Shown here piece by piece: positions 5,205-46,667 of a DNA stretch of 64,000 bases. This DNA is from Balanoglossus misakiensis (lineage: Eukaryota > Animalia > Hemichordata): assembly GCA_040954595.2 (NCBI GenBank), contig CM082576.2:11721129-11785128 (forward strand), in the 5' to 3' direction. Position numbers and translations under genes: made by a program. The stretch's first letter is position 1. Each line of letters opens with the position of its first letter. The notes under the pieces were generated by a model. It saw only the letters and a list, made by a program, of their open reading frames with translations, did not search any database and had not been told where the DNA came from.

Positions 5205-6974
5205 TCACTTGGTGTATGACGTGATAAGTTTGACAAAATCTGAAGAGAAAGATAAATCAAAAGCAAAAAGTTATAAGTTGTCTGCAAAATTATGATGGTT
5301 TGATTTTCTGACACTTTAACAGTGTGAGCGAGCGAAAATCTACTACAAAACGGATGTGTCTTGAAAAATCAAATACTGAGTAATTCTTCATTTTACAGAG
5401 TAGAGAAGTTGGAGTTACTGGGGCTTGGAGTAGTTGACTGTTGGCTATATGTTTTGATCGTTTCTGCAGGACAGATCGAGAAGAGCCATAATCTCGTAAA
5501 ACACGAGACGGTAAGATTCGTGTGTGCTCCTGCGCTGACATACGATGAAACCATTACACGACTTACCCACATAATTCACTTTGCCGTCTTCGCCGACGTT
5601 GGCGTCCTTCACCATTTCGTCCATCTCGTCGGCCGACAGCTTCTCGCCCATCGTCGTCATGAGATGTCTCAGCTCGGTCACGGTGATGAAACCCGTGTCG
5701 TCGGTGTCGAACACCCTGAAGGCGTCGCGCAGTTCGTCCTCGCCGTCCACGGCGTTGAACTTGGTCGCCATCATCATGAGAAACTCCGGGAACTCGATGG
5801 TTCCGCTGCCTGTTGAGGACGAGTTTTGTATAGAGTGTCACTGATGATGAGTGGGGAAGACAGCTAATAAAGGTCGTTGAATGCGCAGGACACACAGCAT
5901 AATCACACATTTTTCATTCTAAAAAGTATAAATTCACTGCTTGATATATATGCCCACATCACCAAGAAGACGCATGACATTTGGCTATCGTCGCTGTATT
6001 AACATTTTTGTTCGACTTTTGTCGATGATGGCGTACTCACCGTCGATATCGACCTCCTGGATCATGTCTTCAACCTCTTTCTCGGTCGGGTTTTGACCGA
6101 GCGACCGGAGAACGATGACCAATTCCTTGTTGTTGATCGTGCCATCTCCATCGATGTCAAACAAGGAGAAGGCCTCCTTTAGTTCTGCAAGAGGTGAAAT
6201 TATTAAAATTCACTGTGTCAATTCCGGTGTTCTAATAAGAAAACAATTCTTAATGTGCAATTAATTATCATTTAAATGTGCACGCAATATATACATTAAA
6301 ATTCTACGCAACGAAAAATTCAAACGCGCGTATACCGTCACGCGTCCCACTTTTTCATTGCATGCTGTTCGCTGTTTGACCCGAGGTGTTTGTTACCTGT
6401 TACTAACAGTTGCTATGGCAACACGTCGTTTTGCATGCATGTTCAACAGCGCTTCATGCTTGATCAGTAGAGACTCAACACAGCAGCAATTAGGCTTTTG
6501 TGGAGTCAACTGTTCTGTTCTCCTAACCACCGCTTCCATGATAATAAGCACTTGCTCAATGCAGAATGTATTTTTTACAGGATTTCGACGCAAAAAAGTC
6601 GTAAATCTATCCTTTCTGGATCACTGCCCTTATCATAACTAGGTGACATCGGCAACTTTGTCTATAACGCCGTCAAAACCCCGCGGTTTTTATGTTGCAT
6701 GAGCGGCCATTTTAAGTGAGTTCAGCAATATTGTTAACGTTTGGGGAGGAGGTATAAAACTCAATTATCTACTATGCATGATTTAGCATAATCTACCAAA
6801 AGATCCCGGAGTATTTATGATCCTGTTTCTGCCTGGAGAAACGTTCTTGTGTTAAACACCGCCACAAATTGCTCATTATCTCTCAGTTCAGTCACGTGAT
6901 ATCACTCATAAGCAATATATGTAAACTCACTTAATTTCTTCAGGCGTAGGAGCGAGACTGTCTACATGCGCCAT
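5205..6974 (-). CDS. Calmodulin-like protein with four EF-hands (divergent; first exon uncertain)
   Basis: Exons 6041-6184 ([35 protein letters not shown]...DIDG), 5567-5809 ([10 protein letters not shown]...[18 protein letters not shown]...GEKLS...) and 5205-5239 ([11 protein letters not shown]) join in frame. Candidate exon 1 at 6931-6974 ([14 protein letters not shown]) has a good donor but ends in phase 2, while exon 2 needs phase 1. Confidence 0.88.
6409..6422. promoter_or_regulatory. RFX X-box in the first intron of the calmodulin-like gene
   Basis: GTTGCTATGGCAAC fits the palindromic X-box consensus GTTNCYATRGNAAC. Confidence 0.55.
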
Positions 6975-16043: not shown

Positions 16044-19000
16044 TTTTAATATTTTTTCCATTTTTTATTCATAATGATAATATTATTCATTTTACCACAA
16101 CTATGAGCCTGAGTTCCCTGTGGGCTGACATGAAAGAACTGAATCATGTTGCAGCAGTTGTGTGATAATAACAAGTCAGGTCACCAAAGATTTTAGTTAC
16201 AATTGTCACCCAGACAGTTCAACCCGGGGTAAACACCAACAATGGTACATGTATATCAGACAGCTCAGCATTTGATTTGGAAAATAAATCTTTCCTTTAA
16301 CCAGCTGCTGTTTATAAGAACAGCTAAATTTCGCTCAGATTACATTATATCGAAAGAAAAGCTACATTTAATACTTAACATTACCAGTACTGTGTTTTAA
16401 AATGTCAAGGCTAAAGTAGAAGTTGATTTTGTTAAATTCTACCTGGCCTCTTCACTCTGCGCTACATGTACCTGCCACATTGTTGACCCGAACATGGCAC
16501 ATTTATCAAAAAGTATCGAACATGACAGATTCCCTCGCCGCTGATGACCCATTTAGTTATGAGGTGCACAAACAATGCAGCAAACCTACAATGTTGACTG
16601 AAGCTATCAAATTATACATTGGCAAAGCTAAATGCTCTCTGAAGCATGGAACATGTCCTGAATATCAACAAGGGTGCACAATGAATAACTGCAATGTAGA
16701 AATTCATATAAAGTGCTAAGGAAGTCGTGTTAATTGGATGTAGAGAAAAAAATGCATATCCGCTTTCATATCCATTATTTTCCTGGAATACTAGCTACAT
16801 TGCTGTCCATTCTAATTCTGCTGGGGTTACATCTATGATTGACCTCATTGATACTCACAGCAGCCTGCTTCCTTTAAGGAAAACGTGCACAGCTACAAAT
16901 ATAACCAGTTAGCGTAATTCACCTACATGTACACTCTATCCGAGCTACCAGCACAGATCAACAAGGAATTATAATTTTAGGCTTACCTGCGAATAGTTGT
17001 ATGCAACATACTGCATATTGAGCGTGGTGATCCCCAACTGATGGGGGAATGGGAGATAATCACTTGATGGTCCCAGCGGGTGGACGTATCTCGTCTCTCG
17101 GGAGAGACCCAGCTTTTCCATCCAACTTCCGTAGACTGTTGCATTTTCTCGCCGACTGGTGGGATCCGGGGTCTGTTCACAGAAAGGGCTCAAAGTCAGC
17201 GCAGACCAGGAATATAACAACTCCAACTTCTACAAAATTGAATAATGTGGGCATACACTATGCTAAGTAGAAAGCCCCTTACCAACGTGGCAGATGTAGT
17301 AATGATGGGAGACAGCGAGGCAGTAGCTTCCACCCTTGGCATATAGCCCCCCTGTACCATCATGTCCATGTCGATGTACACCACAGCTTTCTGCGTCAGT
17401 TTGAACCTGTGCTCCTGTGGGGAGAAGAAGAGGGCGAGGGGGAAGAAAAAATGATTAATTTTGACAATATACTGTATATGTATGAAAAATGTCATTCGAT
17501 TTCAAAGTATTCAATAAGTGGTCTTCATGCATATAACATCGAAACACTGGTGCCCATCAAAGATAAAGACTTTTTTTTAAATACTGTATGCCATCTCATA
17601 CAATGTCTTCCGTGAATTCTATGTAAGTTATACACATTCATTTTTAGACTAAACCTGCTGTTTCAAACTCAGTTCACATATACATGTACTACACACATCC
17701 TTCTCCAAATGGATTCACACATAAACACACATACACCATGCAAACCTCCAAGGGCTGTCTATACAACACCCACCACAGCCCACACCATGCACCCAAAGAC
17801 ACCCAGACCCCACCCCATCAAACACCCACCTCTGCCCACTCCACCGATCCCAAAACACCATGGACACTTCCCCACGAGCAGAACTTGATAGTTCTCTTCG
17901 GCTTCCAGTTGAGTTTCCGGATGATTCCCAGGTTGCGGGCGATTTCCATCATCATGGCCGTGCCATTGTAGTTGTCCATGTTGCCACGGTGACTGCCGAC
18001 CAAAATGAAGCGATCTGAAAGAACGGGATGCACAGTGACAGCTCACATCTGTATGATTACCAAGGAAATTAAAGATAATACATTTAAAACATTCTTTTTT
18101 TAAAACATGGATGTGTTGATTAACTGTATTTATCGTAAAATTCAAGAGTGATGAAATCTATTATTATATTTCAACTTGAAAAACAATTTTCATTTCTGTG
18201 CAGGATGTCTTAAAATCACAAACTGCAAGAAGGCTACTATAAATAAATCATGAATGAAGAGGATGTCCGTGTTCAAAGGTGTACAACCTACACGTTCTTC
18301 TGTGAATGAAAAATGAAAGGGAAAGTGGACAATGGGAGTGACATACCTCGCCCACCGGCGGAGTCCAAGCCTTCTATTGTACCGATCACATTATATAATG
18401 TCTTTCTGGTCTTCTGGTTGACCACTTTCAGGCGCACCATCCAAGGCACAGATTCTGTGACAATAAGGCAACAAAAAGTTGACTATACAAAATAACTGAT
18501 CAACTGACAATCAACTATTTGATAAAATGGACGTCACAGAATAAGGAGTGTCGGTACAAGTTTTGTTGGACGTCGATGAATCATCGCAAGAAAATCCAAG
18601 TGACATTCATGCATCTGTGAACTTTTTCAAAGTCTTCATCACACATTAATTATGTGTTCATTCCATACAGTCTCAAGTGGCCACTAATATACACAACCAC
18701 AATAAGAATGCATCCACATACAATGTAATTCCTGAAAAGACCGTGCCCGGATAGAAATTCAGAAAAGCAAATGTTGTTAGTTTGTGACATGTCAACCACT
18801 CAAATCCCTTTGTTTCATTTAAACCTTTAATTGATTACACTCTAAGGTAGTACACACTTGAGATTGGTAGCATTATTGGCAAACTGCAGTTCTTACTTTG
18901 ACTTTTCCTGCCAATGTAGTAAGTCAGATTCATGGAGCCTTGCCATTGGTCAGGAGCAGCCTTCCCTGTCATGTTTACCATCAGCTGGTGGGCATCCTCT

Positions 19001-21171
19001 TCACTGATTGGCTGAGCAGGGATAGATGGAAGACGATTGGTTGATGCTCCAGACAGATACTCGGCTGAAAGAAGTTGGAGAAACAGTTTAGTGAGCTAAT
19101 GAATTAGGTTTACAATTTAGTCACTACTTTGTCAGATGGGTAGAATTAGTTCAATGAGATTGGGTTTCTTTTAAAACACTTTCTGGCCATTTAGGAATGA
19201 CTATCCTGTGAAAGAACATTTCTGAATAATTTACGTTTTGCTGGAAATCCTGGTGAGTGAGGATCTGCCATGTTCTGTGATGTGATGTACCAATCCTTGG
19301 TGTACAGGTGCTTGTCAGCCGGATCCAAGTAAAACAGGATGCCATTTGCTCCAAATTTTTCAGCAAGTTCAACCTTCATGGGAGAATATACAGAATGATC
19401 TTAGGGTGGAATGCACTGCTGTAGGAGTAAAATAATTGTAGACTGAAAATGTTCCTGTGAAAATTGTGATTTATTTTGACCAAGATTGCGACGGGCCAAC
19501 CACTACTGGCCAACCAAGAAACGGCTACTATTCAGGAAATCAGTCGATGAGACCAGTACCTTTTCATGCAGTCTGTTTTTACCATATCTCAACAGGACAA
19601 TCTTGCCACTGACGGTGACACCCATCTTCTCAACTTTTTCAAAATCTTCCCTTTCTCCATAGTGCGCATAAACCAACTCACCCTGAAAAAGGTAAATGTA
19701 AATATTTAGTAATGCATATCTGATTGTCGACCAAGGTAATCCTTGAAGATTTGTTTGGATTTCTGGCAACACAGACAAACAAGGGAAAATCATGAAACAT
19801 TGAAACTTCTTTGATAATTGGATCAACTCTAAAATCTCGGTGGTCATAATGAGGCTATCAAAATGTTTTCAGACTTCCTCAGATTAATAATATATGTCGA
19901 ATCAAAGGCGAAGTGTTCATGTTTTTTTTTCTCAGAACACCATATTACTCTCCAGTCATTTTGTAATGGTAACAAGAGTTAACATAAGAATCTGTCATGA
20001 TTAAGGGGTCCCATAGTCATACCTCTGCAGACCCCTCAGCTGAGTGCGCATAAAACATCGGCAGTGCCATTTCTGAGCCCTGCCCATTTTCTCTGCCAGG
20101 CTTGGTATTCTCCGTGGCAACTGCTTTTCCATTGCCGGCGCCATCTGACAAACCGGCAGACCCTGTTGGCGGTGCTTGTGATGATGACGATGATGATGCG
20201 CCAGCCTTATGGCCATAGCTGAACACCCTGGAGGAGAGCACTCTGTCCTCCGGGTCGATAAGTTGCACTGAGCTAGGGTGTCCTGGGACTGGGTAGGCTA
20301 GTGTTATTTCATAAGGTACAATCTCCACATCATTGAAGCCGTATGACTTGAACCTCACAGCGGTTTCGTCTGCTACCTGTTCGTCTTTATCCGAATTCCG
20401 TGCTGATGCAAAGTAACTGCAGGGAGGGGGGGAAGTGTAAAAAGAACATTAAATAATCAAAATATATATTTTTTGACATTTTAAAATACAAACACCTTGA
20501 AATGATTTGCCTGCGTGAGTATTATGACTTATGTAGTTCACTGCATTTTTGAAATCAAATTATATTTTGTAAACTTTAATTTCTACAAACCATAATATTT
20601 TCCCTACAGAGTACTTTGAATAGTGGTTCTTTATATTGTTATCCTATCTGTCTTAAGATTAAGAGACGGAGTCAGACAAGGGTCAGATTTAACCAGTACA
20701 GACGGGTACGGCAGACGACGTGAACATGTGAAACCATGTATCAGCTGACAAAGATATATAACGAGGCTATTTTTAAACGCTTTCCACTCACCCTGCGTCT
20801 GCAGAGATGTGATCGGAGGAGACGTTGCCGGTCACCGTTCGGTGGAAGGCTATGAGTCTCTCCAGATCCGTCTTGTAGTCCCTCCTGCCCGACGCGCTGT
20901 CGCACGGCGGCTGGCTGCCTTGCTCGAAAGCGGCCTCGTGGCTGAAAAACCCGGCGAAGGCTCCCAGGAGGAAGAGCACCACGAAGAGGAGGATCTGGCC
21001 ACACACCCGCCGGGTGCTGTAGTAGTTCTCGAAGAACTGCTCCGTCTCGGGGTCGGTCGTTCTTCTCGCGTATTTCCTTTCGTTCAGAAAGCGGTCGCTT
21101 TCGCGCTGGCCGTTCTCTTCCGCCGAACGCAAATTGTAATGCTGGTCGTGGGATGAAATATTGTAGGCCAT
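13646..21171 (-). CDS. Type II membrane M28B-family protein (GCPII/NAALADase/transferrin receptor-like), probably catalytically inactive (NAALADL2-like); 12 exons, ~791 aa
   Basis: Exons 20792-21171, 20023-20416, 19560-19682, 19235-19373, 18897-19064, 18347-18454, 17830-18014, 17283-17414, 16987-17172, 15176-15377, 14260-14434 and 13646-13829 are phase-consistent (2376 nt). The protein has an N-terminal TM helix, a PA domain (GELVYAHYGEREDF, GKIVLLRYG), LPSIPAQPI, WKPKRTIKFCSW, SSDYLPF, and a TfR dimerisation region (MVNDILMLLERSFL...YRHLLY). Confidence 0.9.
14018..14111. mobile_element. Small TTAA-flanked MITE (piggyBac-like termini)
   Basis: TTAAACCCTTTCACC...GGTGAAAGGTTTAA form inverted ends. 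A degenerate second copy at ~10771-10850 shares TTACCATAGAAA and ATGG..TGAAAGG. Confidence 0.6.
15620..16122. mobile_element. 503-bp spacerless palindromic (foldback/MITE-type) DNA element with 7-bp TSD, in intron 9 of the M28B gene
   Basis: Arms 15620-15874 and 15875-16122 are reverse complements, with the axis in CTATATAG. They differ only by two TTA units, one A and one substitution. Termini are CACAGGG...CCCTGTG, and GGCTGAC is duplicated at 15613-15619 and 16123-16129. Confidence 0.9.
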
Positions 21172-27795: not shown

Positions 27796-28161
27796 TCATT
27801 GATATTTCTTTAATTTGGAGACTCTGAAATTCTGATGCACGACGGGTTTAATATCAAAGACGGCAGTCATGAATGCGTCCAAGACGCTGTCCTTATTTTG
27901 TCTCACAAGATCATTAAGAGCTTTGATGTGGCCGCGCGTTTCAACTTCCAGCTCGCGCGCTCTCATGTCAACGTGCACGTGGTTTCTCTCCATCGCCTGG
28001 AGGCGCTGTTTCCTCGCCTTCGTGTAGGCGACGACCTCGCTCTGCGCCTCCGTGTGCGCCGTTCGCATTTTCGTCGCTTTCTTCTTGCGGGCCTCTGCGA
28101 TGATCTCCTTGGCCTTCTCGCCAGCCTGCGCCAACAATTTCTCCACTTCCTCCAGTGACAT
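27796..28161 (-). CDS. ATP6V1G: V-type proton ATPase subunit G-like ORF (121 aa, intronless, divergent); possibly the terminal exon of the upstream SLC5 gene
   Basis: EKLLAQAGEKAKEIIAEARKKKATKMRTAHTEAQSEV..Y matches the subunit G N-terminal helix (LL.AEK.A...V.EARK.K...K.A..EA..EI..Y). The C-terminal VFDIKPVVHQNFR matches V.DI.PE.H.NYR. Confidence 0.85.
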   Translation of the reverse strand: MSLEEVEKLLAQAGEKAKEIIAEARKKKATKMRTAHTEAQSEVVAYTKARKQRLQAMERNHVHVDMRARELEVETRGHIKALNDLVRQNKDSVLDAFMTAVFDIKPVVHQNFRVSKLKKYQ

Positions 28162-28402
28162 GATTACTTTCACCTCTAGAAGTTCGTAGTTCTTTTTCCT
28201 GCGTGGGAGAGAGATCAATATAAAGCCGGGCTTTCACCAGAAACAGAAAACAATTTACATGCACAGTACATGTTTTGGGGGTGCTCAGTATTGCTCGACG
28301 AGACAGATTGCTCTCGGAGATGGTGGTGTCGCCCTCAAGCAACGAATCTTTTAGGTCCACAAGTGGTGAAATAATTTGCAAAGTTGTAATTGTAGAATTC
28401 GT

Positions 28403-31400
28403 TCATACATACATAGAGTTAAGAAGTTGATCTAAGTTAGCTTTTGTGCTCGGAAAATTGTCAAAACCACAAAAAGTATACCTGAGGAAACGAGCTACCA
28501 GCTGTGAGTCGAGGTTGTCCGATAACTCCCTCTCTTCCTTCGAAAAACAACGGTGAATCTCGCTGCAAATGATCGCCACGATCAAGGTGATGAAGAAGGT
28601 CCACACACCGTACCACATAAACGACATCTGCAGTAGGTTAAAAAAACAGAGACAGCGCGTTTGCGTTTAGATTATGTTCAAAGCCTTCCGTTACGGCGTA
28701 GTGAGCCTATAAGTTAGATCGACCTACCGCCACCAACCGCCACCAGACTGCCATGTAAATGTTCGTCAATCAGCACAATGTAAGACTGCACACTTACCGA
28801 GTAGATGGGCAAACCCTCATCGAGGCTGCCGGAATACACAGTGGCACCTATGGCAATCCACAGTCCCATGCTAAGGCCTACTATTATGCCAATTATCACT
28901 CCCCTAGTAAAAATAAATGCCAATAGTTAAGGATCGCACATGATTGGAAGTCGCACCAATTCTCCCTGCCTTAAATAGGTTTTTGGCTACCTAGGTGGGT
29001 GATTAAAATCTCATATGGTCGACACAATTTCAAGATGGCCGATTTTTGCAATGTTTAAGGAATAGGAGTTCATAAGCCAAAGTGATGATGGGTCATTCTG
29101 AAACTGTTTAACAGAAAAAATAACAAAATGTGAAAAAGGTTTAATGAGTTTAATATGGTAACTACAAAGACAGACATGTTTGACCTAAGGAAGACATTTC
29201 TGGCAAGGGGTATTGTGTCATAACCAACCAACCAACCAACCAACCATGCATGCAATAATCCACCACATTTGCTTTCTTAAATTACGTCACTTCGTGCTAT
29301 ACTCAGTTTTAATTTGCTTTCATAGAGTGGCATTTAAACTAACCCTTGAGTTGACCTCCTGTAGAGCACACCAATCGTTGTTGCTGCCAACAGAGGGCCA
29401 CCAAAAACACCGAGTATGGCATTACTTGTAACCAGCATCGAGCCCATGTTACTCACAGCGAAAGAAACGCCGATCGCGATGAAACCAAATGTGATCACTG
29501 AAACGAGAAAGAGTTCGTACATGTATCTGTCAAGTCACTTACAAGGAACGTTAGAAGCATTCGGTGTATTGTCACACCAGCTTCAACTGTGGTTTTCACG
29601 ACCTAAGCGTAAAGGTTTGATATACAATTTGCTATTATGATATTTCGCACTCCATCGCTGCGATGGAGTGGGAAATAAATATGCTTCTTTTAGGGGGAGA
29701 GGTAATCGGTAAGAAATTTAAATGGCAAAGAAGCCGGGTGTTTTACCGGCTGTCGACCCTTTGTTGAGACAAACAGTCTATACATACCGAGAAGCTGGGA
29801 TAACATGTAATCGACGGCCTCATTGTGCACAACTTCGCGACCTCTAGACTTCCACCTTCTGTAGGGTCTGACGTAGTCTTGGATGACGATGGCAGACATG
29901 GCGCTGAGTGCCGACGACACTAAACTGAAATTGGGGGGGGGGGGGAGAGAAAAGAAGTGGGAGATAAGAATCAACAAAGACGGAAGAGAAGAAAGTATAG
30001 TTGGAATAACACGAATGGGTGTAGGTATACGAAGAGATGACGTTCATTAAAGCCAGTCTGGTCGACGAGAAAACTCTCTTGTAGCACGGGCGAAGGAGTA
30101 TTGAACGAGAATGGTCCTGAAAATAGAACGATGGCCGCTTACCTCAAAGTACCAGCAAACACTACGGAGAAGAAGAGACCCTGAAATCCTGGCATGTGAC
30201 TGAAGTTTTCTTTGACAAAGAAAACAAAAACCTGTAGAGTTAAAAAACAAAAGATAACGGGCGTATTATATGTGCACGTGGTTACCTGAAACATCATGTT
30301 TTATTTTGGCCAAGATGCCTGGTCAAAGATGTGCAGGAGCATGAGGAGGATATTGCCAGTGTAGTGTGACGTCATGTGCGCGCGAACGTTATAAAGATGT
30401 GAACACAATCAAAGAGCCAAAGGCCCAACAAACAAAACGAAATGGTACTTTGAATTGAAAATTTACCTCGTCGGGCGAGTAATAGTCCGGTTCTGGGCGT
30501 GGCGTTGGAGTAAGTGTTGACTGTGGCTTTTCTGTAAATAGTGACCAGGTGTCTGACGTCATAGTAGACGTTTCGCTGTTCATTGCTGTTGCCTCCATTT
30601 GAACCTCATCGCCTGGAGAAAAACGGTGTTAGAAACACATAATATTTTAATTTTAAATTCATCTCAGTTCAGTTCAGTTATATTCAATTCAATTTTGCTT
30701 TATTCAATCCTAAAACTATCAGTTGCTTCTCATGTAGGTCGAGTTATATTTTACCAAGATGGCGGAGTCTGTAAGCATTTGTAACTTATATTAGCAGTAT
30801 CTTCATTCTCTACATTAACTACAGTAATTTTCAACAGTAATTGAGCTGACTCTGCACATACTGGCTGCATTGATAGTGTGAGTACTTCACCATGCCATAG
30901 GTGACACACAGAACGAAACACCGCAAAATTGGCAACCAATGACAGCTGGCGAGTTTTAGAGTATAGTGTCCATTCCAATTGTCGTCGGGGGCGCTGTGGC
31001 TGCATGGCAAGGGCACTTACCGTGATAGTATACAAACATCATCGCTCCGATCGAGAAGAGGATTGGTTGGAAAACACACTGATATGGCAGATTCAGCATG
31101 ATAGCCCTGAAATGGTGGGAATAAAATGCTTGTCAGTTATTGTCAGACTTGTCGTTCTCGCTCTGACCATATTTGGTATGAACATCCTAACACTACATCA
31201 ATACTGTAATTGCTGTACTAGAATATGATTCAATATTTATCTGTTCAACAATGATACTTTCGTGTTTTTTCACTTCATTATTCCATCTTGCTAAGAGGCA
31301 TACGATGTGAGACAAAAAAGAAAACAGTTGCCTTGAGGTGACGACCCCGGCCAACTGGGCTTACATTTTGGTTTTCTTGATAGATTTGGTCGATATGGCT

Positions 31401-31765
31401 CTCTGCATCACAATCTGTGTGATCAGCAGAGCCAAGAAGTTAAGACCGCCACCGAAGAAAGCGTTGATGAAAGTGACTCTCTCGGATCCATCTATGGGGA
31501 AGCTGTAAACGAAAGGCAAAAGTGTGACCGATCAAGAAGGGTTCAAATTCGGATGCTAGTGTCAGCTGTCTATCGCAATATATTTTAATACTTCTTCCAG
31601 TAAGAAGGGGAAAACATCAGAAGAAGCGATGAAGCTAGAAGAAACCGGCTGCTCAACCCTTCGATTTACATGTGGTTACATCATCGTGTTCATTTGTTTG
31701 GTTACTTGGATTTATTGCGTTTTGTGTGGAAGAGTATTGAGAGAGGATGACAAACAGAGAGGCAT

Positions 31766-31796
<31 letters not shown>

Positions 31797-32848
31797 TACA
31801 GACAGACAGACAGACAGACAGACAGATAGGGAGATTGAAGAGCATAGAGGATTTATACTTGTTCAATATTCCGCTTACTTAAACACACCGACGCGCTCTG
31901 CATCTTCCATGACCCTCCATATATAGGCCGATCCACCGGTATTGATTGATCCAACGATGATGACGATAAGCAAAGCGATTAACATCAGCAGAAAGAAGAT
32001 GACATCAGTCCACACTATGGCCAAGATACCTCCCTAAATATATTCACACAAGTGGAGAAATATGTTGAAAAAATACCGTTGCCAAAGAACTAGATACTGC
32101 GGATGTCTAAGATAATTTAAAACAAATTCGGTGAAATTTGCTTGCATTTCTCAAATAACAACCAACATAAAAAGACTGATGCACAGCAACTGATTTTTTA
32201 TCCATAAAATTTACACTTACCATGCACGTGTACACTATGCTTATTATAGCCATTGCAAATACACACTGCCACGCCGCAAGCCCATATGCTGCAGAGGGAG
32301 ATATAGAAAGAGAGAGGGATAGGGAGAAAGAGAGAAGGAGGGAGAGAGGAGAAGAGAGGGGTGCAGAAGAAAGGGAGGAGAGAGAGAAAACGGGAGAGGA
32401 CAAATATTAGAATTACGTACAATTGTTTACAAAGAAAAACACACTTAACACTGAAGTGTTGCACAGTACCAATCTAATGCTCTCATATGTTCATACTGTG
32501 CGTCATCGGTACCTCAAACTCCACTGTTAATAAACGTTTTTGCATTGTCGTTCACCTAAAATATTCTCCAGTTGCCTTCGTTATGCTTTGGAACTCCGGG
32601 CATAGCCTGGCAAACATGACTGCATTGGTGATCAGAAAAATAAATGTTTTGTACCATAAGGTTTCAAAGTATACTAGTAAACCAATTTCAACACAAAAGT
32701 GAAAAAAAGTTTAGTCTCTAGGCAGACCTGCTTCAAATGCCTTTGCTGGTCCAATGAGAGCCACGCCGGTGTAGAACAAGCAAAGCGTTAGGAATAATAC
32801 AGAACAGATCAGTTGAGACCCGTACCTAAACCTCAGCCCCATGTACTG

Positions 32849-32945
<97 letters not shown>

Positions 32946-33748
32946 GGGGGGGAGGGATTACATAATTAGTGAAATCTAGTGACATAAATACGCGTTCTGA
33001 TAAGGATGTTTCAAACCGAATACTATTGTGTATCTCCGTCTTCTTGCTAGTTTTTTTGGGGTTAACATTTCTCAGCGATGATATTTATACTATGTCGAGA
33101 GTATCGTATCTGTACAAAATCAAGTTATGTTGACCTTGACCATGGCTAGACCCTTGCAGATGTAGCCTCGATTGAAACCGCAATAAAGATACACCTTGAA
33201 AACTCACCTCATAAACGCTGGTGATACGAATGCTTCGATACACCGATGAGAAAAGACAGGCGGCAACTGGGTAGACCCAGAACATGGAGAGGAAGAAGGC
33301 GGCGAAGCCCATGCCATACTCGTACGTCTCCCCGGGGTAGCCCAGCAGGACTATCGCTGACGAGCATGACACGAAAATGGATAGCGATAGCGGGATCTGC
33401 TTCAGCGACCTGTCTCCCAGGAAGTACCTGTGGGCGAAGAGGCGTTCCACGGCGGTAAAAAAAAATGCTTTTTCGCGATTGTGTGTGCAATTGAGAAAAT
33501 CACTCAGTGACATTTCTACTGTGCGGGTGTGCAAAAGCTGGCGACGACAAACACCCACAAGAGAAACCTCGACAAAACAACACACTGTCCACGAGAAAGG
33601 AATTTGAGTAAAGATTCAACCAAACAAGAACTGTGGAAACTCACCGAGACACTGTTTTCTGCCTTCCCCGCATGAAGGCCTGATAAACACCATGGCAAAT
33701 TACAAAGAGGACCACCAGAAGAAAGATTACGTAATCGACGAAATTCAT
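28403..33748 (-). CDS. Sodium:solute symporter family protein (SLC5A8/SLC5A12/SLC5A6/NIS clade), 13 exons, ~581 aa if the last exon is unspliced
   Basis: Exons 33645-33748, 33208-33427, 32728-32845, 32221-32288, 31879-32033, 31365-31502, 31021-31106, 30467-30612, 30143-30231, 29788-29924, 29344-29497, 28798-28903 and 28403-28627 are phase-consistent. Motifs: [52 protein letters not shown] and SFMWY. Confidence 0.92.
31766..31824. repeat. (GACA)n microsatellite
   Basis: Tetranucleotide run with one interruption in SLC5 intron 5. Confidence 0.93.
32851..32942. repeat. (GA)n microsatellite, ~46 units
   Basis: Pure GA dinucleotide run directly adjacent to the acceptor of SLC5 exon 3. Confidence 0.97.
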
Positions 33749-41119: not shown

Positions 41120-41573
41120 AGTTTATTAGGCGCTGTTCTGTTCTCGGTGTAGCATCCGTCATGCACCATGAAATGTAGTGCGCCCCCAAACATAACAAGT
41201 GGAAGTAACTTTAATCCAGCCCTACGCTCAAATTCGGTTCCAAATTTGTTTCTGTTTGGGTGGATGCCCTCTTCAAGAAGAATCCTATCAAAGAAAATCA
41301 AAAGGTTGCCTTCAACCGACAGATATAAAGTTGTTTCCCTGGCCGTTTGTAGTCGATATGCATGACCATGTCTTCTCGGTGACTTGGGACACGAGCTTCA
41401 CGTATCCGAAAACTAATTCACACCGAAAGGTGGCCTCATATTGCCCGGAAGTGAACTCACAAACTCGCAGCAACGATACAAACGCAAGTCTGCACGATAC
41501 TGTGCCTCACAGAGAGTATTTGGCTGAACATATCTGTAGTGTTTATTGCGAAGGAGTTACCTGAATAGTTGTG

Positions 41574-43528
41574 ATGGATTTCGGTGTCGAAAAAACGAGC
41601 GCTGGGCCTGGCTTTGTTGGTATCAAGTTTTGTCAAGAATGGTAAGTGTTGACTTGTTGTACACAATGCGGAGGCCACACTGCAGCCTCGTGTGTGTACA
41701 ATCCTCTCTAAGTGGACATTCTCTACAGTGGGAGAAAGACTTGGAATAGTGAAAACTTGTGGCATGATTTCAGTGTAGGGTAGCGAACGCATGTACATGT
41801 AAGATGGCGTGCGTCGAGCTCGAGCCACCCTCCACTTTTATATATGTTACTGTTTCTGGCAGTGTTAGTGCAGATACGCCATCTTGTTGAATGTTCTGAC
41901 AGTAGTACCAGCTGTAGCAATCACACCTAGGATCGGTACCACAGGCAGTTACTAGTACTTGATCCTCATTTACACGCAATGTCATTGTCAGTGATTTGCA
42001 TGAATTTTACATTACAATACAAATGCTGATCAGATGGTTTGGCAGTCGTGTATGCCACCATTTCTGTAGCCTGACTAACCTTGTGCCAAACACGTGAAAC
42101 TCATTGCAACATACATTTCTTTAACGGGATAACTTACCAGGGTTACACAAGGATTTTAATTTATTTATTGTTTTATTTTTGTAACAGTAACAATATGTTG
42201 TATCCAAAGGAAGATAAAGAAAATAAAGTCTTACTTTATGCGGTAAGTGACTCCAAAAGCACAACTTTTCTTTTTAAACATAAGATAACTTTCTTTAGTT
42301 TCTTGTAATATATATTATTTATATTGCTGTGCCTTAGTTAAATGTACTCAATGACCAGTTGTCATGACTTAACTATTAGACAACACATGAATAACTTTGT
42401 CTTCCATCACTTAATTTTGGTCAATACTAAACATTGTATCATAGTAATATTCAATGCCATGTTAAAGGCTATGAGTTGAGTAGTACCAACCGATGATTTG
42501 CCATATGTCAGTGTGCACAGAACAACGCAATTAAGCCTGAATTCAAAAGAAACTAGAATAACTGTTGTAATCTTGGCTATATATCACAGTCATTCTAGTT
42601 AATAAATGTCATCTGCATTTCAGTGTCGGAATTGTGACTACCAACAGCAAGCAGACAACACGTGTATATACGTCAATAAAATCCAGCATGAAGTAGAGTA
42701 AGTATCGCAAAGTCATCGTCAAACTGACCACTTTATTTTAAGACTCAGACATTTCACGTTATTCATCTTACAGCTGCATTGGCCTTACTTGTGCAACAAG
42801 GAGTTGGCTGAATCTGTACTATGTGACAAATATTCGTGAGGGGATACATGTAGAATCTTGGAGATTATCATGTATAGAAATTAAACCCATGTAGCTGGCT
42901 GCACTCATACACCTGTATCTTTTCTAGCTTGGGTAGTGTTGTTCATGGAAGCAATAGAGCTTCTTGTGCAGTGATCGTGGAGAGGGTCTTCTGAGTGCTG
43001 TACACAAAAGCTTGCTGGACACACAAACACACACACGTGAAAAATACTGAGCATCCATAGCTCTCATTTTAGAGTGCTTTTAGAGAATTCTGCGAATACT
43101 TATCTTGCAGTGAGTTGACGCAGATTGTCGCTGATGTGATAGCAGATCCAACCCTTCCACGAACAGAAGACCATCCGTGTCCGAGATGTGGGCAGAGAGA
43201 AGCAGTGTTTTTCCAGTCACAGTCCGCTAGGGCAGAGGTAAGTATTCTGCTGGTTACTGTCTTTTTGTACTCTGTCACTGACTGACTGACAGACCGAACA
43301 ACTCACTCACCTACTAATGGATACATCAGAAATTGACAGACAGACAGAAGATAGATCATACTTGTACATGTATTGTCACTGAAATGAGACTTAAATCTGC
43401 TTTTCGGACCTGTCTCTTGTTTTTCTTGGACAAAACTCACTGATATTGTGTCTATTTCATTTCAGGAGGGAATGAGACTTTACTATGTGTGTGCAGCGCC
43501 AAACTGTACACATCGATGGACAGAGTGA
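41574..43528 (+). CDS. POLR2I: DNA-directed RNA polymerase II subunit RPB9, 5 exons, 128 aa
   Basis: Exons 41574-41641, 42188-42242, 42624-42697, 43111-43237 and 43466-43528 translate to [49 protein letters not shown]...[51 protein letters not shown]. This closely matches metazoan RPB9 with both zinc ribbons. Confidence 0.98.
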
Positions 43529-45122
43529 AGTTGGATTTTGTCATTTTGACAACAGGTTTTGATCCGTGTCCTTTAACATTTTAAACTGACTTGACTTTTT
43601 GGTTCCAGTTTTAGAGTAAGAAAGTAAAGAAAATTAATTTATGGCTAGCCTTATTCCCTTTTTTTGCAAACACTGCCCTCTACGGCCAGATTGATACGAG
43701 TTTAGCGGTACATTGAGGGTGAAGTCACCATTTATTTCATAACAACAGGTCAAGGCATTTCATTTGGACAGTTTTCCATTTTTTCTCTGGAGCTTGGCCA
43801 TGTAAATTTGGAAAAAAAACACTTAAGTGTAACATTCTTTTTGGAAAACGTTCCATTTCACAAATATGTTATTGTCTGAGTTGGTGATTGATTGGAGACA
43901 TTGCCACCATGTTTGCACAAATTAATGTGAACTAAAGTCTGCACTTACTACGTTTTTGGCCTTGGAATTGTGTATTAGAGGACTGTCACTGCATGAAGAG
44001 GTGAGACATTATTGTTTCATGACGATATGGGGAGGGGGCGACCGAAATCACTATGGGTGTATGTGTATAGGCGACTTCAAGTTGTCTTCAGTGAATTGGT
44101 GTGTCCGGCGGGGTGTAGGCAGCAGTCTGAAAAAAACTCTTCTGCTCATAGTGTAAGCTTATTACCACGTTATTTTTCCACAACAAGGCACTTCTGGTCT
44201 ACATTACGTGCCTTTACAACACGATTTGCATGCTTCCCTCTCGGGGATACTATCCTTAGTGTCTTGAATCATGGGTAATCGGATTGTCTGAAGTTCTTAA
44301 ACTTATTTTGCATGTTTATAGTACAGTTAATTCGTATATTCTCACGAAGTATGTGCAAACAATTCGGTGAAGCCACCATTCATCAATATTTGTGTTTTCA
44401 CCTTTATCAATGGATCCTGCGAACTTCGATTTTTAGCTCGCGTATCACGCGTTGACGCGCCTTTGAAACAATCGATTTCTGAGTTGCCATGGGGACCACC
44501 ATCGATCGAACTTCCGTTTACCCTGCGAACAGACTGGTGCCCGAGGAGTCTCGCTGACCACGGCGATGTGATGTGAAAGTGTCGGGACTGTTTTGTTTGG
44601 TGTGTTTTGAACCAGCATGTCGGAAACACAAACACGGTGCCGCGGATTTCATCAGCCACGGGCGAGTTGGGTCTAATCGGATGTTGTCGGAGGCGCATGC
44701 AAGGAGGGCACAGCGTAATCCTATTGTCGTCGACTGCCCTGCAAAGTTCTTCTCGGCTGTTGCTGCCACTCGATCAAGCCAGAATAACACCGCGTGTTAT
44801 AGGCCCACTGAGTTGTGAACCTTTCCGGTAAAACGTCTTGCAATAGGATCTCGTTCTTTATAAATCAAGTTCGCCACGAAGTCTATAAAAATAATTAGCC
44901 GCGTTTGTCGACACTGCTTTGTGCAGGGATGTACAACTACGCTGCTACAGAAGTTTCATTAGGCGCCAGTCAGATGCAACTCGAGCAAATCGTCACCCTG
45001 CCTTCACAATCACTTTTAACCAAGTAAGTGCCCGGTAGAAACACATGAAGTTTTTGCCTATCAATCCGAAGAGGGTGTACATAACATAGACACTGAAGTG
45101 ACTCCGAAGTAAATCTTAAACA

Positions 45123-46667
45123 ATGGCGGAGTTTAGCCTGGTGCCCAAAGTATCACAGTGGGGGAAGAAACCAGTCCAGGAGAAAACGGTACTGGACGAG
45201 GACGGCAGACCGGTTCGCAGGAAGCCGATCACCAAGAAAGACCTGACGGAGCAAGCCGTGAAGGACAATCTGCTGGACACAAAGATATTGCAGAAACACC
45301 TGATCATGCTGGAGAACCACAAAAACAGGCGCTTGCACCAGATCGACCGGGAAGTGGTCGAGACGCAGCGGTTCCTCGAGCGCCTGGCGGCCGAGAAGCA
45401 GTCGCTGCGGGAACGGAGAGAATCGGCGGCGGAATTCGGCTACTCCCACGTCTTGCAGCAGATACTGAAATCGATGGGCCTGCCGACGGAAGCCCCGAAG
45501 TTCAAGCCACCGATTCAGCAGAACAAAAGCGGAGGTCGACGTACCGGTTCCGGCTCGAAGAGAGGGAGCGCGACTCCGGCGTCGCTGGTGGCATCGCAGG
45601 GGCGGAAATCTTCGGCGCCTGCAAGTTTGCGAGGCGTTTCCGCGGCGCATCTTACACCCTCAGCTGCCAATCACCAGTTCGAGGACAATATTCTCGGTAC
45701 GAACGTAATCGGTCTTGACTTTGATCTTGAAAGTGAATCGACCGCTCACACGAATGAGAGAGACGACGTTTCTGACGACACGAGTATACGGTTACCCGAC
45801 GATGACGACGATGGGGTAACTGATGGTAACGACGTGAGGAAATCGAAAAGCGAAAATAAGAAGGTGACGTTCGTGGGCGTCGGAAACGAAAGTGATGCAA
45901 ACGACGACAGCGTGACGGAAATCGCAAACGCGGCGAATTCCACTGCCCGGGACGAGGTGGTGGACGAGACCCACCTGCCCTGGGAACTGCGTCGCCTGCG
46001 GTGGGAATTGGCGAGGCGAGATCAGCCGAAATCACCCGAATTCCAAAGCCCGGCGATCCTAAAATGGAAGCAGATTCTCCAGGAGAAAAAGAAGTGTCCC
46101 GTACCGGAGTGCACTCTCCACGGCGAGCGGTACAGCCAGCTGAAGAGACGCGGCGACTCCGTCGGGAAGAGACTTTCGTCTGCCGCCGTCCAATCCGTGA
46201 ACAGCCACTTCTATCACTACGACGACGGGCGACCGTACCAGAGCACCGACTCGACCAGATTCCCGACCCTCTCGCCGGGATGGAAGAGCGCGAACAGCGA
46301 TCCCAGTCGCCGGAGTGAAACACCCGGCACGACGTTCTCCTCGCCGAGTCCGAACATATTCAGGGATTTAGACAGCGAAGAAGAAGAAGACGACGACGAA
46401 GCGAACACCGACCTGGGGAGCGTGGACGCCATATCGTCGGTGAGAAGGCCAATGAGGGGCTCAAACCGAGAAAAGATGGCGGTTTACAAAGAGGCGTCCC
46501 TGCGCAACGCCTTTGAGATCATGCGCAAGAGAGTGGCGTCGGAGGTACCCGAGCCGTTCAACAAAAATTACGGCGACCCTACCCCGAACTGGAAAATCTT
46601 GAACCCACTGAAATTACGCCTTCGCATCTTCCACAAGTCGCCGTTATATGTCAAATGGAAAATGTGA
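45123..46667 (+). CDS. Uncharacterised 514-aa single-exon protein (N-terminal coiled coil, long disordered Ser/acidic middle, basic C-terminal motif)
   Basis: A 1545-nt uninterrupted ORF with GC3-rich coding-like codon use, in sharp contrast to its AT-rich flanks, and a good start context (ACAATGG). I do not confidently recognise any domain. Confidence 0.8.
   Translation: MAEFSLVPKVSQWGKKPVQEKTVLDEDGRPVRRKPITKKDLTEQAVKDNLLDTKILQKHLIMLENHKNRRLHQIDREVVETQRFLERLAAEKQSLRERRESAAEFGYSHVLQQILKSMGLPTEAPKFKPPIQQNKSGGRRTGSGSKRGSATPASLVASQGRKSSAPASLRGVSAAHLTPSAANHQFEDNILGTNVIGLDFDLESESTAHTNERDDVSDDTSIRLPDDDDDGVTDGNDVRKSKSENKKVTFVGVGNESDANDDSVTEIANAANSTARDEVVDETHLPWELRRLRWELARRDQPKSPEFQSPAILKWKQILQEKKKCPVPECTLHGERYSQLKRRGDSVGKRLSSAAVQSVNSHFYHYDDGRPYQSTDSTRFPTLSPGWKSANSDPSRRSETPGTTFSSPSPNIFRDLDSEEEEDDDEANTDLGSVDAISSVRRPMRGSNREKMAVYKEASLRNAFEIMRKRVASEVPEPFNKNYGDPTPNWKILNPLKLRLRIFHKSPLYVKWKM

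Follow-up and report, generated by a model that had tools for sequence, protein, structure and literature searches.

The stalk helices that hold a rotary pump together may be anchored in the membrane, as in F-ATP synthase, where the N-terminus of the stalk helix, subunit b, fixes it to the membrane. Secondary transporters use the gradients set up by primary pumps, and the link between the two normally runs via the shared membrane only. Here we describe a gene in which a carrier and a pump subunit are apparently joined in one polypeptide. It lies on the minus strand of a 64,000-nucleotide stretch of the acorn worm Balanoglossus misakiensis (contig CM082576.2, positions 11,721,129 to 11,785,128; the whole of this stretch is called the window below), and it fuses a transporter of the SLC5 family to subunit G of the V-ATPase, a component of the peripheral stalk of that pump.

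Several described systems share part of this architecture. F-ATP synthase subunit b offers the anchored stalk helix, but in the fusion an entire transporter of 13 helices serves as anchor, and the pump would be the V-ATPase, with its normally soluble subunit G; the G open reading frame (ORF) matches PF00430 weakly, with an E-value of 0.003, below the cut-off. The bacterial SSF-NanM (mutarotase) fusions, seen in Atlas clusters, also join SSF to a second domain, but that partner is an enzyme for the substrate and not a subunit of the energising pump. In the SLC5/STAC sensor kinases (CbrA, CrbS, RpuS) an SLC5 domain carries a cytosolic domain at its C-terminus, as it does here. These proteins are bacterial, however, and their partner consists of STAC and a histidine kinase, whereas the ortholog of our protein in the acorn worm Glandiceps shows Pfam SSF and V-ATPase_G only. 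CbrA is described as devoid of the sodium ligands of membrane helix 9 and probably proton-driven (PMC7096432), by way of a lysine in its Na2 site (PMC13022988). A lysine of the CbrA type was looked for at the mapped Na2 positions of the fused proteins and was not found.

No description of an SLC5-subunit G fusion was found in the literature searched (listings and starts of abstracts, largely outside subscription journals), in agreement with the earlier note on this DNA, which knew of none. The main text of the hemichordate genome paper (PMC4729200) contains neither 'SLC5' nor 'ATPase'; its supplements may list domain combinations. The fused proteins already figure in public databases, where precomputed annotation gives them both Pfam families, and their RefSeq labels are plain 'multivitamin' or 'monocarboxylate transporter'. 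The sequences point to a real and old chimeric gene, confined to acorn worms among the candidates scored, which joins two known families in an apparently undescribed architecture. Three families of acorn worms have kept it for about 370 million years. If the tail acts in the pump, a covalent stalk subunit would hard-wire a carrier to it and would show, as an experiment of nature, whether a V-ATPase can assemble and reversibly disassemble when its G is anchored in the membrane. If, moreover, the tail serves as a stalk while the carrier uses the protons of the pump, the two would make up a novel type of assembly of pump and carrier. An unfused sister paralog in each of three species is a ready control, and Saccoglossus and Ptychodera are laboratory animals, so that the idea is directly testable.

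Structure of the gene and of its last splice junction

The SLC5-G gene is modelled with 14 exons on the minus strand, from 33748 to 27796, and has an open frame of 689 residues. Their order is supported by tblastn, in which the Ptychodera ortholog aligns to all 14 exons of the window gene, in order. The features are as follows.

33645-33748, minus strand: exon 1, with the ATG at 33748 and membrane helix 1; tblastn match to residues 1-34 of the Ptychodera ortholog, 74%
33208-33427, minus strand: exon 2, membrane helices 2 and 3, Pfam SSF match; gene model and tblastn
32728-32845, minus strand: exon 3; gene model and tblastn
32221-32288, minus strand: exon 4; gene model and tblastn
31879-32033, minus strand: exon 5, membrane helix 6; Asp180, equivalent to D191 of NIS, is kept, and Phe183 replaces NIS Q194
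31365-31502, minus strand: exon 6; gene model and tblastn
31021-31106, minus strand: exon 7; gene model and tblastn
30467-30612, minus strand: exon 8, Ser/Thr/Pro-rich loop; gene model and tblastn
30143-30231, minus strand: exon 9, start of membrane helix 9; gene model and tblastn
29788-29924, minus strand: exon 10; Leu376 replaces the Na2 ligand T354 of NIS
29344-29497, minus strand: exon 11; gene model and tblastn
28798-28903, minus strand: exon 12; gene model and tblastn
28482-28627, minus strand: exon 13, membrane helix 13 and start of the cytosolic tail, with a phase-2 donor at its end; 40 of 48 residues shared with Ptychodera
28199-28481, minus strand: intron 13, 283 nt, in which the unspliced form meets its in-frame stop (28405-28403)
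28162-28198, minus strand: 5' part of exon 14, coding linker (residues 556-568) kept in relatives
27796-28161, minus strand: 3' part of exon 14, encoding the V-ATPase subunit G domain without an intron, with the stop at 27798-27796; Pfam PF03179, E 8e-15

Exon 13 (28627-28482) ends at a GT donor in phase 2, intron 13 is 283 nt long and an AG acceptor opens exon 14 at 28198. When intron 13 is not spliced out, the frame stops at 28403, giving a product of 581 residues, and the ATG of the G ORF (28161) comes 241 bp further on. The earlier note had placed the donor, the acceptor, the phase and the intron length exactly here and had measured the same 241 bp. Its reading of an open join through the whole subunit G ORF, 689 residues in all, is reproduced by the 14-exon model; the exon that begins at 28627, which it took for the last SLC5 exon, is in fact the second-last exon of the gene (exon 13 of 14). 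Splice sites were scored with a matrix built from the introns of the fusion gene itself. The acceptor at 28198, already singled out as strong, ranks first among the 59 AG sites scanned, and the 28482 donor, at 4.8 bits, falls within the range of the donors of the gene (3.7-10.7). Intron 13 contains none of the 12 polyadenylation-like hexamers and no TATA-like box for which it was scanned.

Fused relatives in other acorn worms

The G ORF (121 residues) was used as query in an index-free search of 1.84 billion representative proteins, which returned 92 matches. At the top stands a Glandiceps talaboti protein of 692 residues (XP_077989287.1; E 3e-17, 45% identity, aligned at 578-688) that carries both Pfam SSF and V-ATPase_G. 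Word-index searches with the same ORF gave no match at near or greater lengths, though fused relatives exist. The other long match of the G ORF is a nematode model of 399 residues that contains a TPPC8-like piece and has no relation to the SLC5-plus-G architecture.

With the whole Glandiceps protein as query, 76 matches were obtained from 7,999 scored candidates, those sharing most words. Both Pfam families are present in four of the 76, all from acorn worms and from three species: the query itself, Ptychodera flava (XP_070578316/7, 688 residues) and Saccoglossus kowalevskii (XP_002730727 and XP_077864267, two models of one gene). No fusion was seen outside acorn worms among the candidates scored, and no echinoderm or pterobranch row was returned, so that this range is a lower bound. 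The transporter part of the window protein is 75% identical to that of Ptychodera, 62% to Glandiceps and 52% to Saccoglossus; the fused G domains diverge faster (38-60%, versus 52-75% for the transporter). In each of the three species the next match is an unfused SLC5, on a contig listed with the same length as that of the fusion, which suggests a neighbouring duplicate. Within the 64-kb window there is no free G gene, no subunit E gene and no unfused sister.

The Saccoglossus models continue for about 85 residues after the G domain with an Asp/His-rich stretch of short repeats, and the newer of them has an extra 58-residue insert that resembles a retained intron.

One protein or two neighbouring genes

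The fusion is very probably a genuine single chimeric gene, as judged from the comparison of sequences between species. The join is more than a chance feature of the window, since an identical join occurs in the protein models of three other species; the earlier note had held that absence of the arrangement in relatives would tell against the fusion, and it is present in all three. The linker encoded at the start of exon 14 (residues 556-568) has 10 of 13 residues in common with Ptychodera, 7 of 12 with Glandiceps and 3 of 13 with Saccoglossus. The position of the Met that would start a separate G protein in the window is occupied by Leu, Val and Phe in the three relatives, and the first Met of the last-exon product comes at residue 14 in the window, 70 in Ptychodera, 44 in Glandiceps and 22 in Saccoglossus. 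That the linker is kept as protein and the G Met is not argues against a separate G gene. Likewise, the spliced tail resembles the tails of the three fused relatives with z-scores of 10.6, 8.2 and 5.9, versus 1.0, 0.7 and 0.7 for the unspliced tail.

The competing explanation is that gene predictors have merged what are in fact a pair of neighbours, or the parts of a dicistronic or trans-spliced unit, with SLC5 ending at 28403 and G starting at its own ATG at 28161. Some observations weigh on its side. The 28482 donor is weak, ranking third of 27 GT sites, with higher scores at 28609 and 28413. The unspliced tail reaches a z-score of 3.3 against one of the three unfused paralogs, whose tblastn match extends to 28406. 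The window Met, with an A at -3, sits at about the position where a free G would begin, so that this species may have a free G isoform as well. Finally, the fusions of the relatives are database gene models, all of them predicted, and the 28482/28198 join is predicted from the sequence. Nevertheless, such an arrangement appears very improbable. A free soluble G with its own start codon fits poorly with a Met replaced by Leu, Val and Phe, and in two relatives no Met occurs before residue 44 or 70 of the exon product; what would be an untranslated leader is kept as protein (10 of 13 residues in Ptychodera); and the unspliced tail fits none of the fused relatives. A dicistronic or trans-spliced operon would call for a conserved downstream start and for an upstream stop with a 3' end signal. 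The downstream start is not conserved, and the stretch from one ORF to the other is free of polyadenylation-like signals. Thus, the fusion proposed in the earlier note is strongly supported by orthologous fused proteins in three acorn-worm families, with a conserved linker and an unconserved G start codon, and the dicistronic or read-through alternative that it left standing has become unlikely; the tethering mechanism that it drew from the fusion is kept below as a proposal.

Origin of the fusion

A phylogeny of the SLC5 parts was computed in the "careful" mode on 21 rows (18 from outside the bacterial set and 3 of the 34 bacterial ones), the G domains being removed and one Saccoglossus model omitted. 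The four fusions form one clade (100/100), branching in the order Saccoglossus (Glandiceps (Ptychodera, window)). This clade is sister to the unfused acorn-worm paralogs, the two together again at 100/100, and a lancelet protein is sister to both. In a "quick" tree built from 36 G domains, of which 4 are fused and 32 were taken from the 64 free ones, the fused domains group as well, at 99, and their source among the free G proteins is not placed.

The similarity of the fusions to the unfused paralogs stops at the last junction, and the G domain lies within one exon. Free animal G genes typically contain introns. We infer that an SLC5 gene was duplicated before the enteropneust families split and that one copy gained an intron-free copy of G as a new last exon. 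The end of paralog similarity at the last junction and the single G exon fit the capture of a retrocopy, which the added sequence probably is. The split between harrimaniids and ptychoderids is dated to about 373 million years ago (PMC4729200), and the duplication would be older than that.

The transporter half

By sequence, the nearest solved relatives of the membrane domain are SMVT (E 3.5e-66), SMCT1 (1e-56) and NIS (4e-54). The exon 2 frame matches SSF (PF00474) with 35.7 bits, above the cut-off of 22.8, and the Glandiceps ortholog reaches 121.8 bits. For the Ptychodera ortholog, as distinct from the window protein, AlphaFold2 gives a model with a predicted local distance difference test (pLDDT) value of 88.8, whose top Foldseek hits are NIS and SMCT1, with a template-modelling score of 0.86 by target. 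This Ptychodera model has a LeuT-type fold and 13 predicted membrane helices, as NIS and SMCT1 do. A cytosolic C-terminus follows from the 13-helix topology of NIS. The fusion is therefore like SLC5A6 (SMVT), SLC5A8 (SMCT1) and SLC5A5 (NIS) in sequence, fold and number of predicted membrane helices; it differs from them by its C-terminal G domain and by the substitutions described below. NIS orthology and a role in iodide transport were set aside, since Q72, Q94 and W255, which we take to be anion-binding residues of NIS, are not kept.

Positions of NIS were mapped by alignment, with site definitions taken from 10.1101/2025.10.07.681042 and PMC6316985. The position of T354 is a Leu in all four fusions; it is a Thr in the three unfused paralogs, Thr or Ser in 10 of 11 other rows, and Thr or Ser in all 26 ungapped bacterial rows (8 more are gapped). 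Q194 is replaced by Phe or Leu in the four fusions and by Leu in the three paralogs, and F67 by Cys in the four fusions. Thus, of the canonical Na2 site (S353, T354; Q194), S353 is kept and both T354 and Q194 are replaced. The side chains of the Na3 site (D182, S345 and S346 of SiaT, that is D191, S356 and T357 of NIS, according to a table in PMC5931594 plus an offset) are Asp, Ser and Ser in all four fusions, and the equivalents of NIS S66, S69, Y144, D191, Q263, Q267, R268 and S353 are likewise kept. According to the same source, the canonical Na2 site occurs in 54% of SSF sequences (PMC5931594); its loss does not exclude membership of the family, since the feature is absent from the other 46%. 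With one Na2 ligand lost, the coupling to an ion has probably been altered or weakened. Proton coupling is possible, and no known hallmark points to it. The assignment of this half to SLC5 in the earlier note stands; the loss of a conserved sodium ligand had escaped it.

The unfused paralogs mirror the fused clade: they keep T354, have lost the D191 equivalent in two of three cases and Q194 in all, whereas the fused proteins keep D191 and lose T354. Compared with the paralogs, the fused clade has a longer Ser/Thr/Pro-rich loop in exon 8 (30467-30612), and this loop is poorly ordered in the Ptychodera AlphaFold2 model.

The subunit G tail

The G ORF matches Pfam V-ATPase_G (PF03179) with 55.7 bits (cut-off 28.6; profile positions 8-105 of 105; E 8e-15) and aligns over the full length of human G1 (10-117, E 1e-14). 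Among its matches with Atlas features, V-ATPase_G is recorded in 30 of 30. With subunit G (ATP6V1G / Vma10) the tail shares this Pfam match, the full-length alignment to G1, a long helix, a hendecad core and a C-terminal motif. It differs in being the tail of a polytopic membrane protein and not a free 13-kDa protein, in being encoded by a single exon, in its low identity (34-38%) to the best free G relatives and in the loss of several conserved charged residues.

Conservation was assessed with G1 numbering against 64 of the 91 free G matches, those of 108-135 residues. Fifteen positions are kept in all four fusions: L12, A14, A25, R26, K27, K29, A40, E43, Y47, T77, V95, D105, P108, H111 and N113. 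When the 11 possible hendecad registers were compared, a single register came out both as the best conserved in the 64 free G proteins and as the best kept in the fusions. All four fusions retain 11 of the 13 conserved positions in the core of this register, versus 7 of the 18 that lie outside it (p 0.006). The putative core would be the face that packs on subunit E. At the C-terminal end, 10 of 13 conserved positions are kept, and the motif Asp-Ile-x-Pro-x-x-His-x-Asn is found in all four fusions.

AlphaFold2 predicts exon 14 of the window as a single 100-residue helix (15-114, pLDDT 90.8) and the Ptychodera tail as one helix (571-669) that follows a poorly ordered linker. The spacer between the last membrane helix and the G helix measures 39-43 residues. 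A Foldseek search with the lone G helix gave no match, as expected of a single helix.

Proposed function and its rivals

We lean slightly towards a model in which the chimera of an SMVT/SMCT/NIS-like SLC5 and subunit G is a carrier held beside the V-ATPase. The cytosolic G tail would pair with subunit E and take the place of the free G in one peripheral stalk, and the paired tail would keep the SLC5 carrier next to the proton pump. Subunit G forms a coiled coil with the N-terminal helix of E and, as stated for the archaeal homolog, binds the E head via its last 20 residues (PMC3470569). According to the same paper, EG1 and EG2 are predicted to bind the a subunit by their N-terminal parts, and yeast EG and V1 were purified through N-terminal tags on G. 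The N-termini of EG2 are located at the a/C interface (PMC8804929). As the N-terminal end of EG lies near a and C, a membrane anchor at the N-terminus of G would point the right way. With a cytosolic tail and a spacer of about 40 residues, the tether would be geometrically possible.

Several features count against such a tether. Besides the low identity of the G domain to free G proteins, all four fusions lack G7, Q9, E15, K16, K37, E45 and E52, residues that free G proteins conserve. K37 is a Pro in two orthologs, in the middle of the helix, which speaks against a rigid stalk. The core register was picked by conservation, not by structure contacts, and its top two candidates in free G are nearly tied (0.75 and 0.74). 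A bulky membrane domain may also clash with the collar of the a subunit.

In a rival explanation the fused protein is real and its tail binds E or V1, but as a regulator: it would keep V1 that has detached, or E that is in surplus, at the membrane or steer the assembly of the pump, with the SLC5 part mainly as an anchor or a transceptor-like solute sensor that may transport little. The replacement of T354 by Leu in all four fusions, against Thr in the three paralogs, would suit this explanation; the equivalent SiaT mutation, Ser343Ala, abolishes transport (PMC5931594). The loss of charged positions outside the putative G core while the core is kept would suit it too. Further, a separate gene named Vatg1 is listed, by name only, for Schizocardium (PMC13554239, supplement file 5), so that a free G can probably still be drawn on. 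On the other side, conservation of the membrane domain is good (52-75% identity, with the eight NIS equivalents listed above kept), and the canonical Na2 site is so often missing in SSF proteins that its loss does not amount to a loss of transport; we consider a purely regulatory role rather unlikely. It is also unlikely, and slightly more so, that the G helix of a real fusion has been re-used as a general coiled-coil tail, for self-dimerization, scaffolding or sorting, without binding E. This would account for the long branch of the fused G domains (0.68), for the Pro at 37 in two orthologs and the loss of E15 in all four fusions, and for a G domain that diverges faster than the transporter, and purified free G is prone to aggregate (PMC3470569). 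Yet the Ala-rich hendecad and the Asp-Ile-x-Pro-x-x-His-x-Asn motif have been kept in all four fusions over about 370 million years, and the C-terminus of G is the part that binds the globular head of E in the archaeal homolog (PMC3470569), which a general coil would not need.

The tethered carrier may also be carried a step further, to a more speculative and doubtful version in which it is itself a V-ATPase subunit. Its G tail would form one of the three stalks and so give the pump a stator anchored in the membrane, comparable to subunit b of the F-ATPase; the carrier, devoid of the Na2 site, would run on the protons or the voltage of the bound pump.

As to where an ortholog might be expressed, the main text of PMC12768270 contains neither 'SLC5' nor 'ATP6V', and none of the SLC5 rows covered from the Schizocardium marker table (PMC13554239) could be tied to the fusion ortholog.

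Other genes in the window

A multi-exon cytochrome P450 gene (23360-26950, plus strand; Pfam p450, CYP4-like by eye) converges with the fusion gene, its stop lying about 850 bases from the G stop. Exons at about 19000-21171 (minus strand) resemble by eye a type II membrane protein, which we take to be NAALADase- or transferrin-receptor-like; the frames tested gave no Pfam match. Those at about 41500-43530 (plus strand) resemble by eye what is presumably the RNA polymerase II subunit RPB9. An unbroken frame of 515 residues at 45120-46667 (plus strand) is of low complexity and has no Pfam match. On the minus strand, an open frame of 353 residues at 1385-2443 contains a Major Facilitator domain (PF07690), and the frame at 5448-5837 a pair of EF-hands.

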